A stretch of DNA of 32,457 bases, from assembly GCA_964447755.1 (NCBI GenBank), contig CAYUTM010000002.1, forward strand, positions 8,992 to 41,448. Direction: 5' to 3'. The notes beneath the pieces are model-generated. The model was not told where the DNA came from, did not search any database, and saw nothing but the letters and a program-made list of their open reading frames with translations. How positions within the stretch are numbered: the stretch's first letter is position 1; each line of letters begins with the position of its first letter. Of the stretch, positions 3,146 through 21,185 are shown in pieces. Source of the stretch: an uncultured Gammaproteobacteria bacterium. GTDB lineage: Bacteria > Patescibacteriota > Patescibacteriia > Magasanikbacterales > GWA2-37-8. The translations under genes were made by a program, and so were the position numbers.

Positions 3146-3499
3146 ATGCGCTACTCATTCAAAAATTACTTCTTAGATTGGTGGATATTCGGTCCGTGTA
3201 TAGTCTCACTTGTACTTGAAGTTTTTATGGTTATCTATGGTATTAAACATATAAGGGCAGTAGAAAGTGGAGTTTTTCTAAGATATTCAGTACTGGTGGG
3301 GCCTAGTTTGCACGGCAGTTGGTGGCGTTTGTACGGCATGCCTTTATTGGGATTTTTAATGCTTTTAATACACATGATATTTTGGTTTTTTGTCTACAAA
3401 CAAGATCGAATTCTTGCGCGTATTATGGCCTTTGCTTTGGTGCCTTTGCACATATTTTTGATGGTTTCTTTCGTGTTAATTATAGGTATAAATTATTAA
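3146..3499 (+). CDS. Small integral membrane protein, unknown function
   Basis: 117 aa with 3-4 hydrophobic helices. The stop abuts the FtsW/RodA start (TAA then GTG at 3497-3502). The promoter candidate lies just upstream. Confidence 0.55.
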   Translation: MRYSFKNYFLDWWIFGPCIVSLVLEVFMVIYGIKHIRAVESGVFLRYSVLVGPSLHGSWWRLYGMPLLGFLMLLIHMIFWFFVYKQDRILARIMAFALVPLHIFLMVSFVLIIGINY

Positions 3500-13102: not shown

Positions 13103-14188
13103 ATGTTTAAAGTTAAAAAAGCACTCCTAACAGGTGGAGGAAGAGCGACACGTTTGCGTCCGATTACCACGACCATAAATAAACATCTCATTCCATTGGC
13201 TGGCAAACCTATGATTGTGCATGCCATTGAAAAAGTTGTTGAGGCAGGAGTGGAAGAAATTTTTATTAACACTAACCCAGGAGAAACACAAATTCAAGAC
13301 ACTGTTGGAAGCGGAGAAAAGTGGGGTGTGCGCATTACTTACTTTGAACAGACTGGAGGACCACAAGGTATTGCACATGTTGTAAAATGTGCAGAGAAAT
13401 TTATGGGTACCGATCCATTTATTTTTTATTTATCCGATAACATTATTTTGGGGAGTATAACTTCGCTTGTAGAAAATTTTGAGAAGAAAGAATTAGATTG
13501 TATGTTGGCTTTGGCCGAAGTTCCTGATCCTGAACGTTTTGGAGTGCCTCAGTTTGATGTCAATGGAAATTTGGTGGACGTGTTTGAAAAACCACGTAAC
13601 CCAACTAGTAGCTTGGCAGTGACCGGAATCTATTTATATAATGTCAATTTTTTTAAAGCATTTGATCATATACAAAAATCATCTCGCGGAGAATACGAAA
13701 TTTCTGACATTCATTCATTTTTTTTAAAAAATAACTTTAAAGTTGGGTATAAAGAAATTACTGGCTGGTGGAAAGATACAGGTAAGCCGAATGATTTATT
13801 GCTTGCAAACAAATTATTACTGGATGAGTTTAAAAAAGAAAACATTGAAAAAAATCCGGAAATAAAAAAAGAGATAGAATGGGTAGATAATATTAAATTC
13901 GGAAAAAATGTAAATTTATATAAAGATGTAGTATTACTAGCTCCGGTTATGATTGGGGATGACTGTGTTTTGGAAAATTGTACTGTAGGGCCCTACGTAA
14001 CTATTGGAAATAAAACTAAAATTTCTGAAGCGGAAATTAAGGAGTCGATTATTTTTGGTAATTGTACTATTGAAGCACCGCTAAAAATAGCGGATAGCAT
14101 TATTGGTGAAAACACAAAAATTTTTAAAAACGACGTTGATGTTTTTCATCGATTTATTCTCGGTGATTTTACGCAGTTAGAATTTTAA
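13103..14188 (+). CDS. Sugar-1-phosphate nucleotidylyltransferase, long form with C-terminal beta-helix (glucose-1-phosphate thymidylyl/uridylyltransferase-like)
   Basis: 361 aa. N-terminal GGGRATRLRPIT nucleotidyltransferase loop and a GPQGIAH motif. The C-terminal part has hexapeptide-like repeats (IGDDCVLENCTVGPYVTIGNKTKI). Confidence 0.75.
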   Translation: MFKVKKALLTGGGRATRLRPITTTINKHLIPLAGKPMIVHAIEKVVEAGVEEIFINTNPGETQIQDTVGSGEKWGVRITYFEQTGGPQGIAHVVKCAEKFMGTDPFIFYLSDNIILGSITSLVENFEKKELDCMLALAEVPDPERFGVPQFDVNGNLVDVFEKPRNPTSSLAVTGIYLYNVNFFKAFDHIQKSSRGEYEISDIHSFFLKNNFKVGYKEITGWWKDTGKPNDLLLANKLLLDEFKKENIEKNPEIKKEIEWVDNIKFGKNVNLYKDVVLLAPVMIGDDCVLENCTVGPYVTIGNKTKISEAEIKESIIFGNCTIEAPLKIADSIIGENTKIFKNDVDVFHRFILGDFTQLEF

Positions 14189-16981: not shown

Positions 16982-17590
16982 CTACTTTTTCCAATTATCA
17001 CAGCTAAGCTTGTTTCCTAGGAAGCAAGATTGCCTTAAAAGTTCTTGGGGATCGGCAATTTTATTGTTTCTAAACGAAACTTCGCCTAATTTTGCTTCTT
17101 TCATGAGCAAAGCCAATTCATAGCATGATCCACTGATATTGGCACTACATTGATCTTGCAAGAAGTTCTTTATTTCTTGGCATTTACTGTTATCATCAAG
17201 GCATTTCTGGTGATCTTCTAGTTGTCTAATATCCATTTGAAAATAAAAATCCGACGAACAGGATACCTTATATCCATAAGCGCACCCTAAAGTACGCAAG
17301 CTTATGCCACTCTGTTTTATTCCATTGAAGTAGATATCTTTTTTTTCTGCATGTTCGCTTAGTTTAAAGCAGTAGTAGCCAAGTTTTTTCTCAAAGCATT
17401 CTGCTGTATAAGCATATATCATCTCGCCACAATTTTGGGGCTTACGTTCGCAAGAATTGGAAAGTGCGACAAGTTTACCACCATGCTTTTTGTTGTTGTG
17501 TGAACAATATCCAATTAAAGCACAAAATATTAGTGCCAAAATTAGGAAAATTGTGCTATTTTTTCTGCCTGCTGAAAAGATCGTTTTCAT
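16982..17590 (-). CDS. Exported paired-cysteine repeat protein (Sel1/Hcp-like spacing), unknown function
   Basis: 202 aa with an AAGGAG SD 7 nt upstream and an N-terminal hydrophobic segment. It carries five Cys pairs (C-x9-C, three C-x8-C and one C-x7-C): ECFEKKLGYYC, GCAYGYKVSC, KCLDDNSKC, QCSANISGSC, SCFLGNKLSC. Confidence 0.6.
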   Translation of the reverse strand: MKTIFSAGRKNSTIFLILALIFCALIGYCSHNNKKHGGKLVALSNSCERKPQNCGEMIYAYTAECFEKKLGYYCFKLSEHAEKKDIYFNGIKQSGISLRTLGCAYGYKVSCSSDFYFQMDIRQLEDHQKCLDDNSKCQEIKNFLQDQCSANISGSCYELALLMKEAKLGEVSFRNNKIADPQELLRQSCFLGNKLSCDNWKK

Positions 17591-17696
17591 GTACCACTCC
17601 TTGCTTTTTGCAATTAAAAGCCCTAAAAACTATCATAACCTCCGTGTTTTGTAAAGAATTGCCGGGGAATGGTGGTAAAACCGCGCTGAATTAAAT

Positions 17697-17730
17697 AAAA
17701 AAACATCTCGATATAATCAAGATGTTTTTT
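17697..17730 (-). terminator. Intrinsic terminator (A-tract/T-tract flanked, bidirectional in form)
   Basis: Stem ACATCT (17702-17707) pairs with AGATGT (17719-17724). It is flanked by A6 and T7 and lies downstream of the minus-strand gene 17788-18036. Confidence 0.6.
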
Positions 17731-17732
17731 TG

Positions 17733-17770
17733 TCCCCGGAGTTTTCATGTGTGGCACCGGGAGTTCACAT
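17733..17770 (-). repeat. GC-stem hairpin element, copy A (3' UTR position)
   Basis: CCCCGG (17733-17738) pairs with CCGGGG (17756-17761) around a 17-nt loop, followed by AGTTCAC. It is 28/38 identical to copy B at 20052-20089 with one compensatory stem change. Confidence 0.5.
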
Positions 17771-17787
17771 ATTTAAGATTTTTGGGT

Positions 17788-18036
17788 CTATTTGTGCTCG
17801 GTAGTTACTGGGTTTAGTGTGTATTGAATTTGGATAGTTGCGCGGTAAGACCAATTATATCCGCTTTTATAATCTCGTTCTATTTCAATTTCAAGAACTG
17901 TAAAGGTTGGATTTTCTATACCAAATTTTCTAACCATATCTCTGATTTGTTGATTACAGTCCGTTTCATTAATGCCACAACAGGAAGTATAATAAAAATC
18001 AAATGTTTTTAAGTCTGAACCTTTTACGCCGGTCAT
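17788..18036 (-). CDS. Hypothetical small protein
   Basis: 82 aa with a strong SD (AAGGAGAAACAG-ATG). I recognised no family and no signal peptide. Confidence 0.6.
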   Translation of the reverse strand: MTGVKGSDLKTFDFYYTSCCGINETDCNQQIRDMVRKFGIENPTFTVLEIEIERDYKSGYNWSYRATIQIQYTLNPVTTEHK

Positions 18037-18228
18037 CTGTTTCTCCTTTTTTCTGTTTAATATAACAGATGGTTCTATTTTTGATTTTCAAAAGTATAAC
18101 AATCTATTATATTCCAACAAACAGTTATGTGTGGGCTTAAAAGAACTATTTCAGACTAAACAAGTTTATTGTGATTGTCAACATTAAGAAAAATTATTTA
18201 AATAACCTGTAATTTTTTTAGGATACGA

Positions 18229-18252
18229 AGGCACCTGGTGAGACAGGTGCCT
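18229..18252. other. Perfect 9-bp hairpin overlapping the stop codon of the 18251-18619 gene
   Basis: AGGCACCTG-gtgaga-CAGGTGCCT. The T-rich run is on the plus-strand side only, so a terminator role is uncertain. Confidence 0.35.
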
Positions 18253-18619
18253 ATCTTTTCTTTTGATATGAATCTTTGCAGGCTATTTGGAAGCCATGGT
18301 GACAGCCAGTATTCGGCAAGTTTGATGTGTTAAACTCAACCCCTCTACGGCTTTTTATTTTTTGGTACATTTGATCAAAATACTCGCACGCTTTTTCGAT
18401 TTTGCCCCGAAAGCAATTTCGAGCATAAAAATCTACAATCGCCGCACAATTATCATTGAGGAGGCATGTCTTAAAATTTTCATATTCCTTAGTCTGTTCT
18501 TCACTACGAAAAATTCTTTCGCGCTCTTCTTCTTGATAACAATAGCGATCAAGTTTGTACAACACAAGTATGGCTCCGATACCAATCAGCACCCGAAAAA
18601 TTTTCATGAGATTTTTCAT
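18251..18619 (-). CDS. Membrane-anchored/exported paired-cysteine protein, short paralog of the 16982-17590 product
   Basis: The internal ATG at 18619 is preceded by GAGGAGGATACC and by a TTGACA-17-TATATT promoter. N-terminal TM segment (IFRVLIGIGAILVLY). Cys pairs TCLLNDNC, NCFRGKIEKAC and GCHHGFQIAC; compare GCAYGYKVSC in the larger protein. Confidence 0.6.
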   Translation of the reverse strand: MKNLMKIFRVLIGIGAILVLYKLDRYCYQEEERERIFRSEEQTKEYENFKTCLLNDNCAAIVDFYARNCFRGKIEKACEYFDQMYQKIKSRRGVEFNTSNLPNTGCHHGFQIACKDSYQKKR

Positions 18620-18668
18620 GGTATCCTCCTCTTCTGTTTGTGTGCTTGAGCTTCGCAAAGAGTTTGGA

Positions 18669-18697
18669 AATATATAGTATTTTTGAATTTCTGTCAA
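18669..18697 (-). promoter_or_regulatory. Sigma70-like promoter candidate (TTGACA-17-TATATT on the minus strand)
   Basis: The reverse complement of 18692-18697 is TTGACA and that of 18669-18674 is TATATT, with a 17-nt spacer. It lies about 50 nt upstream of the ATG at 18619. Confidence 0.45.
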
Positions 18698-18794
18698 GAT
18701 GGATTGTTGTTTATATATATAGAGTGGAGCTTGAAGAAATTTGATTATGCCTATGTTAATTATTGAGATACATTTTAAAATATATATCGTTGAA

Positions 18795-19127
18795 TCATTC
18801 TTCATCTGTATATTCCAAAAAAAGTCTTTTTTCAAAAGCGCCGCGCTCTTGTTTTTTCTCTTCTTTTCGTTTGATAATTTCCCGAGAAGTTATATTGCTA
18901 TTTTTAGCAATCGTTTCAATTACTTCCAAAATATCTGCTAATTCGTTAAGAATTTCTTCGTTAGATTTTGCTTCCGCGAGTTCATGCGCTTCCTCGGTCA
19001 ATTTTTTATTGAGAGCAATTCTAAATTCCTCAGTGCTTAACACAGAAATTTTTGGTGTAGCGTTGTTGTTTGTGATTATTTCTGGGATTTTATCGCGGAT
19101 TAATTTGTTGTAGATTTTGCGTGGCAT
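18795..19127 (-). CDS. MazG-like all-alpha NTP pyrophosphohydrolase (house-cleaning NTP-PPase family)
   Basis: 110 aa. IYNKLIRDKIPEII ... EEAHEL ... LNELADILEVIETIA ... RGAFEKRLFLEY matches the KLVRDKIPEII/ELADILEV pattern of this family. Confidence 0.7.
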   Translation of the reverse strand: MPRKIYNKLIRDKIPEIITNNNATPKISVLSTEEFRIALNKKLTEEAHELAEAKSNEEILNELADILEVIETIAKNSNITSREIIKRKEEKKQERGAFEKRLFLEYTDEE

Positions 19128-19376
19128 ATTCTAGTTTTTTATTTGAACAACCTTCTCCGTTAGATAGTAGCAGTTTGTCTTATTGGCAGCAATATTTTGA
19201 GTAAAATATTAGATGGTTTTTTGTGAGGTAGGGTAGTTTTTTGAAAATCATGGCTTTTTTGTCATACTCTTGACGAAATGAGTGTCTGGTGACACAATAA
19301 TTGCTCCTATCAACGCCAAGGTAAAACTTGGCACAAAGCCGCTTTGTAGCGGATAGTAGCAAGGGAGAGTGCTCGA

Positions 19377-19943
19377 ATGATGAAACTGATGGCTCTGGCT
19401 TTTGTGGGTTTGCTGATCACTGTTGGATGTGGTCCGGTTGAAAAATCCCTACCTGTGCAACAGGTGGATATGGGGCAGAAACTTCCAAGCTGCCCAGACC
19501 TTAAGGTTGTGGTGGCTGAGACTGGCAATCCGGTGGGGCGTTTGGTTCAACCAGGTGAACCGGGTTTTGTTGCTTTGAAAAGCACATTTCAAGGCTCTGG
19601 TGACCCAAAGTGTGGTGTGAGGGTTACCCGATTGAAGCTTATCGTCGATGGCACTGCCAATAGTAATGGCATGGCTTGGCAGCAAGATTCGGGGGGTGGA
19701 TCATTTGCATCGAGCGGAATTGTCACCAACAACAAAGTCGATGCTCAGCCTGGGCATCTGGCTCATTTGGGCAATGGAATGTTGGACATGTACTTCCACG
19801 TCATCCCAGATCCGAACGGGGTTGAGGGAACGACATTCCAGTTTGAGTTGGTGGAAGTGGAGTACACCAATCTCACAACTGGCGACAGTCACCTGCTCAA
19901 TGTCGCGATTTACGGAGGTAACTTCATTTACTCGCGGCCATAA
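19377..19943 (+). CDS. Lipoprotein, unknown function (GC-rich island gene 1)
   Basis: 188 aa. N-terminus MMKLMALAFVGLLITVG|CG is a lipobox-like signal. GGGAGAG SD 7 nt upstream. It has its own hairpin terminator at 19979-20005. Confidence 0.6.
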   Translation: MMKLMALAFVGLLITVGCGPVEKSLPVQQVDMGQKLPSCPDLKVVVAETGNPVGRLVQPGEPGFVALKSTFQGSGDPKCGVRVTRLKLIVDGTANSNGMAWQQDSGGGSFASSGIVTNNKVDAQPGHLAHLGNGMLDMYFHVIPDPNGVEGTTFQFELVEVEYTNLTTGDSHLLNVAIYGGNFIYSRP

Positions 19944-19978
19944 GAGCATTCTGCTCGGTCCGTTCTGTTCGCATTTAA

Positions 19979-20005
19979 GCGCCTCCCTCGAGGTGCTGTT
20001 TTATT
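19979..20005 (+). terminator. Intrinsic terminator candidate
   Basis: GCGCCTC-cctc-GAGGTGC (one G.T pair) followed by tgttttatt. Confidence 0.45.
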
Positions 20006-20012
20006 ACGGCAT

Positions 20013-20047
20013 AAAAAAGCAGTCGGTGTTAAACTGACTGCTTTTTT
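20013..20047 (-). terminator. Intrinsic terminator (A-tract/T-tract flanked)
   Basis: GCAGTCGG (20019-20026) pairs with CTGACTGC (20034-20041), flanked by A6 and T6. It lies downstream of the minus-strand gene 20119-20883 and of hairpin copy B. Confidence 0.6.
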
Positions 20048-20051
20048 GTTG

Positions 20052-20089
20052 CCCCGAAGTTGTCACGTGTAGCGTCGGGGGATTCACGG
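20052..20089 (-). repeat. GC-stem hairpin element, copy B (3' UTR position)
   Basis: CCCCGA (20052-20057) pairs with TCGGGG (20075-20080) around a 17-nt loop, followed by GATTCAC. The architecture matches copy A. Confidence 0.5.
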
Positions 20090-20118
20090 CACGAATACGT
20101 GCGTTTGGTAGGAGATGG

Positions 20119-20883
20119 CTATGGCGTCTTGCCGAGCAGTTCGCGGATGTTGATAGTCATAGAGCCTTGCTTTCCACCACGCTCACCACAGATGAGCAGC
20201 TCTTTGGCCATCTCGTGACCGTCCGCGTCGTACATCGGCTCCGCCCATGAGGTGCACCTGAAGGACGGCTCGTTGTCGAATGGACCAAACTTGGTCTGGT
20301 CGATAACGCAGTACCATTCGAAGGTGCCCTCATCGCCTGTCTCGTAGTTCTGCTCCCCTGCGGCATAGACGAGCACGCCCGAGTAGATACGGGCGCTCTC
20401 CGGGTTAACACAATCCCAGTGGAGCATGTGACGCCCGCCATGCACGGCCCCCCACACCTGATCATTATCTTCATTGGTCATCCCGATGAAGAGGGGGTGC
20501 CCGCCAGAGATGCCAACGATCTTCCGAACGAATTCTGGGCCACCATACTCGGTCGTGCCGTAGACCACCACGTTGTTGGTGAAGTAGTCAGTCTCGTCAC
20601 CAGGGAGCTTGGCAACATAGAGCGGCTTACCACCAACAATGTTGACATCGCGGACATCGGGGAAGTACCTCCCTGTGAACTCAGCATAATCCACACGGAT
20701 ACCTCTCTTGGTGGGCACGATCTGGACGCCCTGGATGGGTTTTGCCGGAGAATCGTCCTTTCTGACTTTCATGGAATGGTTGTTTTCGTAATGGTAGATC
20801 CAGTAGGAAAAGCCTCCCAGCTCTTTGAAGTTTGGCTCGGGGTTACGAGAAATGGGGTGGGTAGTAGCATCCGTCGTGGTCAT
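20119..20883 (-). CDS. Orphan 254-aa protein, no recognisable family (GC-rich island gene 2)
   Basis: Strong C/G third-position bias in this frame only. GGAGGA SD 6 nt from the ATG and a TTGACA-17-TATGTT promoter about 100 nt upstream. No signal peptide. Confidence 0.7.
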   Translation of the reverse strand: MTTTDATTHPISRNPEPNFKELGGFSYWIYHYENNHSMKVRKDDSPAKPIQGVQIVPTKRGIRVDYAEFTGRYFPDVRDVNIVGGKPLYVAKLPGDETDYFTNNVVVYGTTEYGGPEFVRKIVGISGGHPLFIGMTNEDNDQVWGAVHGGRHMLHWDCVNPESARIYSGVLVYAAGEQNYETGDEGTFEWYCVIDQTKFGPFDNEPSFRCTSWAEPMYDADGHEMAKELLICGERGGKQGSMTINIRELLGKTP

Positions 20884-20982: not shown

Positions 20983-21011
20983 AACATATCACAAAATTAC
21001 AGCTTTGTCAA
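20983..21011 (-). promoter_or_regulatory. Sigma70-like promoter candidate (TTGACA-17-TGaTATGTT on the minus strand)
   Basis: The reverse complement of 21006-21011 is TTGACA and that of 20983-20988 is TATGTT, with a 17-nt spacer and a TG extension. Confidence 0.5.
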
Positions 21012-21185
21012 CCTTGATCTGTGGCTAAAATTAGCCAAATAGCTAGGTATGGTGTTTTACCACCATCAGCATCTCCGCCAACCTTAGTCATCAACCACTG
21101 AACAAAAAAGCGAATTTGCTCACGCACTGACGCGAAACCTGGTCTTGAAAGACAAAAAGTCAGTTTTTCCAAGCCAAAAACGGCC

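Follow-up and report, generated by a model that had tools for sequence, protein, structure and literature searches.

What kind of element stands between the stop codon and the terminator of two unrelated genes, and what might it do there? The question is raised by a 32,457-nucleotide (nt) stretch of DNA, hereafter the window, comprising C2:8992-41448 (contig and positions) of a genome labelled G000: a 1.03-Mb draft in 77 contigs, 97% complete, with a guanine-plus-cytosine (GC) content of 38.8%. An earlier note on this DNA had pointed to two look-alike hairpins, copies A and B, each on the minus strand between a gene and its terminator, and both are indeed present in the sequence. Our analysis shows the hairpin to be one of two predicted crossing helices, the resulting pseudoknot being fixed next to an intrinsic terminator in ten places in the genome. 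The pseudoknot-terminator is a module of a genus of Candidatus Magasanikbacteria, within the candidate phyla radiation (CPR), and, judging by sequence matches, occurs sporadically in related genera. We read these elements as a lineage-specific, cis-acting 3′-end module of accessory-gene transcripts, a reading in which our confidence and our doubt are evenly balanced. The structure is what the data show; the mechanism – insulation of the terminator, a nuclease-resistant 3′ cap, or both – is what we infer from it.

The string previously quoted for copy B (20052-20089) is identical to the sequence. That quoted for copy A has one extra G: the true string, CCCCGGAGTTTTCATGTGTGGCACCGGGAGTTCACAT, spans 17734-17770 (37 nt), position 17733 is a T, and the 3′ arm reads CCGGG followed by A rather than CCGGGG. 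The identity of 28/38 without gaps was inexact; the hairpins match at 22/28 positions ungapped and the tails require a gap of 1 nt. As to the stems of 6 base pairs (bp), the plus strand of copy A affords five Watson-Crick pairs, and it is on the minus (RNA) strand that six form, by way of a U·G pair. The loops of 17 nt are correct in both copies, as are the compensatory G-to-A and C-to-T changes (17739/17757 versus 20057/20075), and the surroundings are as described: a minus-strand stop codon, a spacer of 17 nt (A) or 29 nt (B), the element, and a terminator of A-tract, stem and T-tract. The quoted strings also hold a second helix. Their "tail" (..TTCACAT in copy A, ..TTCACGG in copy B) pairs with the hairpin loop (ATGTG and CGTG, respectively), and the fold is therefore an H-type pseudoknot. 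With S2 denoting the hairpin stem, S1 the helix formed with its loop, and P0 an optional hairpin on the 5′ side, the parts of copy A are, in the order of the RNA:

17788-18036, minus strand: gene before copy A, an AT-rich orphan of 82 amino acids (aa) with a TAG stop at 17788-17790 (open reading frame (ORF) list; no Pfam family).
17766-17771, minus strand: S1 5′ arm, UAUGUG, with the core UGUG at 17766-17769; pairs with 17746-17751 (pair counts).
17757-17762, minus strand: S2 5′ arm, UCCCGG, the first pair being U·G (sequence; minimum-free-energy structure from RNAfold).
17746-17751, minus strand: S1 3′ arm, CACAUG, within the S2 loop (covariation; the ortholog on the metagenome contig L101 has a U·G intermediate).
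17740-17745/47, minus strand: loop 3, GAAAACU, 5′ of the S2 3′ arm on the RNA (sequence; RNAfold).
17734-17739, minus strand: S2 3′ arm, CCGGGG (sequence; RNAfold).
17697-17731, minus strand: intrinsic terminator of A7, a 9-bp stem, a 5-nt loop and U7, bidirectional (terminator scan; RNAfold z-score -4.8).

Those of copy B are:

20119-20883, minus strand: gene before copy B, a GC-rich (56%) orphan of 254 aa with a TAG stop at 20119-20121 (ORFs; no Pfam family).
20089-20102, minus strand: P0, GCACG uauu CGUGC, abutting S1 (sequence; RNAfold).
20085-20088, minus strand: S1 5′ arm, CGUG (sequence; pair counts).
20075-20080, minus strand: S2 5′ arm, CCCCGA (sequence; RNAfold).
20066-20069, minus strand: S1 3′ arm, CACG, within the S2 loop (sequence; pair counts).
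20058-20065, minus strand: loop 3, UGACAACU, 5′ of the S2 3′ arm on the RNA (sequence; RNAfold).
20052-20057, minus strand: S2 3′ arm, UCGGGG (sequence; RNAfold).
20013-20047, minus strand: intrinsic terminator of A6, the stem GCAGUC../..GACUGC and U6 (RNAfold).

The two window copies belong to a larger family. A search of the whole genome, suggested in the earlier note, returned eight further copies in the same context, so that G000 holds ten, spread over nine contigs. An ungapped scan followed by a gapped regular expression gave C6:33581, C7:30638, C7:6712, C15:16269 and C39:1734; C5:32186 and C44:1346 came from a scan anchored on YCGGG..AAAAA, and C4:34876 from a covariance model. A relative at C8:31093 has the hairpin only. 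The shuffle control named in the same note was also run: a degenerate 28-mer covering both window copies has 0 expected chance matches in the window. When a pseudoknot descriptor was applied to ~978 terminator-like sites, 13 matches were found, including eight distinct family sites, as against two when the upstream sequences were shuffled. The order of parts is the same in all ten copies – stop codon, spacer of 8-97 nt, pseudoknot, terminator – and the variable distance from the stop codon argues against any coupling to translation termination. The claim that a structured element lies between the stop codon and terminator of unrelated genes is thus supported well beyond the original pair.

From 5′ to 3′ the RNA comprises the optional P0, S1 5′ arm, loop 1, S2 5′ arm, loop 2, S1 3′ arm, loop 3 and S2 3′ arm, with the terminator (A-tract, stem-loop, U-tract) beginning 2-5 nt beyond. 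The consensus arms are CGYG/CRCG for S1 (4-6 bp) and CCCCGA/UCGGGG for S2 (5-6 G-C-rich bp). Loop 1 measures 2-5 nt, loop 2 0-5 nt, and the A-rich loop 3 (..ACAACU; for example GACAACU, GAAAACU or AAAAAAGU) 4-10 nt; a short loop 1 combined with a longer, A-rich loop 3 suits H-type geometry only in this orientation. The motif occupies ~45 nt plus the terminator, the pseudoknot module being the predicted last 70-95 nt of the messenger RNA (mRNA), and the core conserved across the ~10 paralogous copies is CCCCGA .. ACAACUUCGGGG. P0-like hairpins are found in copies C4, C7b (one of the two on C7, C7a being the other), C15 and C44, and at L027 of G001, a genome of the same genus. An H-type pseudoknot with A-rich loop 3 and adjoining terminator is what the alignments (A4 and A8, below) and pair counts return. 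The terminator itself was recognised by the terminator scan in copy A and by RNAfold in copies A and B, and every family member has one; S2 and the terminator together make up the minimum-free-energy fold, for which copies A, B and C7a have RNAfold z-scores between -4 and -5. A coding explanation was rejected on the ground that differences in loop length are not multiples of three.

The terminator of copy B is common to a convergent lipoprotein gene (19377-19943, plus strand). This gene has a terminator-like hairpin of its own, AGCGCCTCCCTCGAGGTGCT followed by GTTTTATT (19978-19997, plus strand), ~15 nt upstream of the bidirectional terminator that the two genes share. Elsewhere in G000, another GC-rich unit has, 5′ of its terminator (C10:~13190-13260), a pseudoknot that agrees with the family in architecture and is unrelated to it in sequence (P0 CCCCA..UGGGG, then AGUG a UGCCUAG CACU auau CUAGGCG); relatives yielded no ortholog of this pseudoknot, only its terminator being repeated there. 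A near-identical terminator hairpin (CAGCTTT, loop, AAGGCTG, Ts) recurs in the family and order, in many genomes and after genes with no relation to each other (loci L029, L052, L059, L064, L065, L108 and L109, together with C10 and C11 of G000).

The strongest evidence for the fold comes from covariation, which the earlier note had seen in a single pair of changes and which proves real across many more pairs and copies. Pair counts were taken from a hand alignment in fixed register, padded with N and with N cells set aside, comprising 11 sequences (A4) or 16 (A8); alignments of the raw copies by MAFFT (A1-A3) misaligned the helices, model-made alignments (A5, A6) misplaced the loop helix, and none of these was counted. 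Pairing reaches 98.2% of cells for the 11 sequences, with two-sided changes in 4/4 S1 pairs and in 5/5 counted terminator pairs. No more than 1/500 shuffles reached the observed value on any measure, and none did so on four of the five, while sliding one partner by 1-3 columns reduced pairing to 26-50%. The 16-sequence alignment, which adds C4, three other genera and one metagenome ortholog, has S1 100% paired with 4/4 pairs covarying and 3/6 S2 pairs covarying. S1 takes the forms CGUG/CACG, CGCG/CGCG, CGCA/UGCG, UGUG/CACA, CAUG/CAUG, CCGC/GCGG and CGUC/GACG. Such changes extend to orthologs: an S1 pair that is C-G in one of C7a and its G001 counterpart is U-A in the other (C-G to U-A), and the series C-G, U·G, U-A is represented by the consensus, L101 and copy A, respectively.

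The same tables bear on the strand. G·U occurs in ten of their cells and A·C in none, so that a fold of the complementary strand would be burdened with ten mismatches and only the sense strand folds well. Comparison of sequences thus shows a predicted fold under selection, with the sense strand as the folded strand.

A critical issue is whether the module is maintained independently of the genes that it follows. The element of copy A is identical at 75/75 positions in G001, where the protein encoded before it is 63% identical; the contig L101 matches the pseudoknot of copy A at 90-93% identity, as against 60-70% for the gene. P0 and the pseudoknot of copy B are identical at 62/62 positions in L101. 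These alignments show the predicted module to be better conserved than the gene before it. Beyond the G001 ortholog of the copy-A gene, at L081:6747-6858 (the end of G001 C13), that gene (G000 C2:26794-26905) is matched by a further stretch, which suggests a tandem duplicate cut by the contig end.

Further evidence comes from islets that share their ends and differ in what lies between. An islet at C7:28937-30703 of G000 and a 2-kb islet on C5 of G001 have a promoter and leader that are 78% shared and a pseudoknot and terminator that are 95.5% shared, around cargo ORFs that are unrelated and at chromosomal sites that differ. The G001 islet adjoins a transfer RNA (tRNA) gene, tRNA-Leu(GAG), and the matching site in G000 is empty. 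At the C44/C32 locus flanks and promoter are conserved, and cargo and pseudoknot both differ. Conserved modules around unrelated cargo imply that the module acts as the 3′ portion of accessory-gene units that can be exchanged, and these comparisons show it, as predicted from sequence, persisting while cargo genes are exchanged. Two observations attach to these loci. Outside the window, at C20:~3146-3200, G000 carries a remnant of tRNA-Leu(GAG) that lacks ~37 nt from anticodon arm to T arm; G001 has the intact gene at the same place (L080:5506-5590), followed by the 2-kb islet that ends in a pseudoknot-terminator. The cargo region of the islet before C7a (L002 ~2400) contains a 10-N scaffold gap, and its ORF structure is uncertain.

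Exchange of this kind invites an explanation at the level of DNA, in which the element is a recombination or boundary site, resembling the attC sites of integrons, for capture or exchange of foreign genes. Its place at the 3′ end of genes of foreign composition, the conservation of structure above sequence, and both cases just described – different cargo between conserved modules at different sites, one beside tRNA-Leu, and replacement of cargo and pseudoknot together between conserved flanks – would all sit well with such a site. The strand evidence speaks for RNA: the cells (ten G·U, no A·C) favour the sense strand, the one that is transcribed, in the form of a pseudoknot, which fits RNA and leaves DNA formally admissible, and the covarying helices cross, unlike those of any known single-stranded-DNA recombination site. 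Nor are the attC core sites, R″ (RYYYAAC) and R′ (GTTRRRY), present in the copies read, where the nearest strings (GTTGTCA, GTTTTCA, GACAACT) break the purine/pyrimidine pattern. Instead of a promoterless tandem array there are copies dispersed over nine contigs, in units with their own sigma-70-type promoters (no search was made for an integrase). Copy B lies inside its own GC-rich island rather than at the edge, and the G001 island is not flanked by direct repeats. A related idea, that the element is a tRNA fragment or att repeat, was rejected on the last ground and on the length of the hairpin loop, too long for a T arm. We therefore regard a DNA-level marker as improbable. The same strand bias, crossing helices and dispersal leave the earlier suggestion of a recombination site "linking the two cassettes" unsupported; a looser version of it can be retained, with the element serving as the 3′ module of accessory-gene units open to exchange.

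The genes themselves have little in common. The proteins encoded upstream of the ten copies have no mutual homology and match no Pfam family; that of copy B has a single homologue cluster among 5.8 billion proteins. Most of the upstream genes are GC-rich, foreign-looking orphans, the AT-rich gene before copy A being different, and islands with a GC content of 50% or more, which account for ~10% of the genome, are touched by 7/10 copies. The GC-rich orphans are mostly, to judge from these features, horizontally acquired accessory genes. Many such islets also share a beginning, represented in the window by the promoter of the copy-B unit:

20983-21044, minus strand: TTGACA, 17 nt, TATGTT, after a palindrome of the GGCTAATTTTAGCC type (promoter scan; nhmmer/blastn match to the 5′ module of the C7 unit; motif scans).

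Promoters of this type also head the C7a, C7b and C44 units. More generally, TTAGCCA-N9-11-TTGACA, often as the palindrome GGCTAATTTTAGCC, starts most islets of at least 50% GC (~17 sites, including that in the window and G000 C7:28964, C47:835, C11:12912 and C44:~2850), and is a candidate for a regulator site common to acquired genes. As a universal partner of the pseudoknot it was rejected, since it heads only 4/10 units. One could nonetheless imagine that promoter, structured leader and pseudoknot-terminator constitute a lineage-specific "expression cassette" bracketing exchangeable GC-rich cargo, the pseudoknot being a recognised signal for cargo exchange or for dedicated RNA-level control of acquired genes, and not a passive 3′ structure; we offer this tentatively, as a proposal with a modest chance of being right. 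A separate palindromic repeat of 29-33 nt, CCTGCCCAGATAGACATCTGTCTAGGCGGGC, occurs in at least six copies in G000 (C71:3592, C22:12350, C17:15569, C5:11442, C1:6219 and C1:11473) and once in a cassette leader of G001 (L012:1328-1360).

Downstream, seven of the ten copies are followed by a co-directional gene and three (B, C15 and C5) face a convergent one, with no relationship among the downstream genes. The seven co-directional neighbours lend some attraction to the possibility that the pseudoknot senses a ligand or protein and sets read-through into the next gene. So does its form: the small transcriptional riboswitches preQ1-I and fluoride likewise have an H-type pseudoknot with an A-rich loop 3 and a terminator immediately 3′. 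As an account of the family, however, a riboswitch-like or protein-dependent attenuator has to accommodate the three copies that face a convergent gene, the C4 copy, which is followed by a separate promoter, and downstream genes with no relation to each other. There is no Rfam family match at E ≤ 10, reading of the sequences revealed no conserved antiterminator pairing, and a G-C-rich S2 of 6 bp is expected to fold without ligand. We think this attenuator a distinctly improbable explanation.

Extension of the analysis to other genomes and databases revealed a narrow distribution. A scan of window positions 17500-20400 against the 4227 families of Rfam (cmscan, E ≤ 10) returned only spurious microRNA and leader matches on the terminators. 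Among 60 relatives a sequence-pattern search found the motif in one, the same-genus G001, and an exact-pattern scan of GTDB genomes found it in the same genus only, the other 16 matches being ordinary hairpin terminators. Altogether, further copies are known from G001, from L101 and from genera g4, g59 and g16 of the family; in these three genera the covariance model yielded clear members (L059, L065, L069), with possible ones in three others. In a model search of 240 genomes of the order, the matches outside the family were only plain long hairpins before terminators. A scan of metagenome contigs gave two true matches, both identical to G000. Viral contigs in IMG/VR gave chance matches only, in high-GC viruses, and we thus found no support for a phage origin. 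A literature search returned no description of such a motif. We regard this as a real family of predicted structured RNAs, narrow in distribution and clear in covariation, that is undescribed in Rfam and in the papers searched. The genomic association of the predicted pseudoknot with foreign gene cassettes is of interest in its own right, its function being inferred.

The best reading of the element remains the one that the earlier note listed first, a role in the 3′ untranslated region (UTR). Pseudoknot and terminator would be transcribed as the final 70-95 nt of accessory-gene mRNAs. The pre-folded pseudoknot would stop foreign upstream sequence from disturbing the folding of the terminator, and the two together would form a compact, nuclease-resistant 3′ end. 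Where degradation is by ribonuclease (RNase) J, which proceeds 5′ to 3′, that end would in addition persist as a stable fragment of ~75-95 nt. RNase J is present in G000 (C1:13775-14080) and is the only processive exoribonuclease detected; single-domain searches gave no match in G000 to RNB (RNase II/R), the PNPase domain PF03726, Hfq or ProQ, a provisional result.

Several points weigh against this reading. With RNase J as main exonuclease, the coding part of the mRNA could not be shielded by a structure at the 3′ end, which makes a simple "mRNA stabiliser" less convincing; the lack of matches to PNPase and RNB, for its part, comes from single-domain searches of a draft that is 97% complete. 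The near-perfect conservation of the loops in copy A suggests sequence-specific recognition by a protein or RNA partner over a purely structural role. With respect to the structure, the alignment was fitted to it by hand, and in free register an S1 of at least 4 bp is individually unremarkable (shuffle p of 0.01-0.47 per copy). S1 is broken in a presumed ortholog pair of genus g24 (L052/L054), and relatives exist with the hairpin only (C8 in G000, L029 and L035 in G001), so that S1 may be dispensable. Copy C5 is the weakest and least secure member of the family.

Taken to their limit, the structural points would mean that the pseudoknot has no function of its own: paralogous terminators of common ancestry would have acquired a second helix as a by-product, the window copies being alike by descent or chance. 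The shortness of S1, the hairpin-only versions and the fact that plain tandems of GC hairpin and terminator are common after GC-rich units in the order are all compatible with this. Compensatory double changes at 4/4 aligned S1 columns, some of them between orthologs, are not, and neither are an element far better conserved than its flanks and shuffled controls that gave 0 matches for the 28-mer and two against 13 for the descriptor. Of the explanations considered, this is the one to which we attach the least probability, and it is very small.

The conservation of the loops leads to the main rival of a cis-acting cap, namely that the fragment of P0, pseudoknot and terminator is itself functional: a set of 3′-UTR-derived sibling small RNAs, or a protein-bound decoy or tag, acting in trans or marking accessory transcripts for a dedicated RNA-binding factor. 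That ~10 paralogous copies have a common conserved core is as this proposal would predict, and positions predicted to be unpaired are conserved too (the 75/75 and 62/62 identities of copies A and B). RNase J, moreover, might halt at such a fold and would then leave exactly this piece. Set against these are the lack of a match to Hfq or ProQ in G000 and of any obvious conserved single-stranded seed, the short A-rich loop 3 excepted, which is expected to lie in the S1 groove. We consider a trans-acting or protein-binding fragment possible, though on the unlikely side.

To our knowledge, structured RNAs of CPR bacteria are almost unexplored, and it is against systems known from elsewhere that the 3′-end module has to be placed. 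Like the preQ1-I, fluoride/crcB and SAM-II/V aptamers, it is a fold of similar size in which two short helices cross, loop 1 is short and loop 3 A-rich, and an intrinsic terminator lies directly downstream. Unlike those aptamers, which lie in 5′ leaders, it stands 8-97 nt after a stop codon, has no consistent class of downstream gene, in 3/10 copies has no downstream gene to regulate, matches no Rfam family, and has a long, G-C-rich S2 with no evident antiterminator. With integron attC sites it shares a structured form conserved above sequence at the 3′ end of cassettes of foreign composition. These sites are imperfect hairpins in single-stranded DNA with R/L core sites and extrahelical bases, in arrays beside intI/attI, whereas the copies described here are dispersed, have their own promoters, and form a pseudoknot whose wobbles fit the RNA-sense strand only.

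There is also a resemblance to repetitive extragenic palindromic (REP) sequences and bacterial interspersed mosaic elements, which are repeated, structured and non-coding and which follow genes before or at the transcript end. REPs are simple palindromes, near-identical in tens to hundreds of copies, that protect against 3′-to-5′ exonucleases; the present family numbers ~10 copies, diverged outside the core by compensatory changes, with crossing helices at fixed spacing to a terminator, in a genome with no RNB or PNPase match. Small RNAs derived from 3′ UTRs likewise combine a structured region with the mRNA terminator and may have several paralogous copies with a conserved core; the present elements, predicted from sequence, differ in that Hfq and ProQ are without match and that the conserved nucleotides lie mostly in helices.

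The association with foreign orphan genes and swappable modules bears on how ultra-small symbionts with minimal regulation domesticate and express acquired genes, and a compact motif with unusually clear covariation, even between orthologs, is directly testable by mutation and compensation. In this regard the comparison with viral exoribonuclease-resistant RNAs (xrRNAs) is of particular interest. These encircle their own 5′ end and resist the eukaryotic enzyme Xrn1, and they have no sequence similarity or demonstrated similarity of fold to the element. They are nonetheless compact, pseudoknotted folds of 3′ UTRs, and by analogy the pseudoknot could stop a 5′-to-3′ exonuclease – here RNase J, which is present – and leave a 3′ fragment. 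If it does stop RNase J, or tunes termination, it would constitute a portable part for synthetic terminators and a bacterial counterpart of the nuclease-resistant structures of viral 3′ UTRs.

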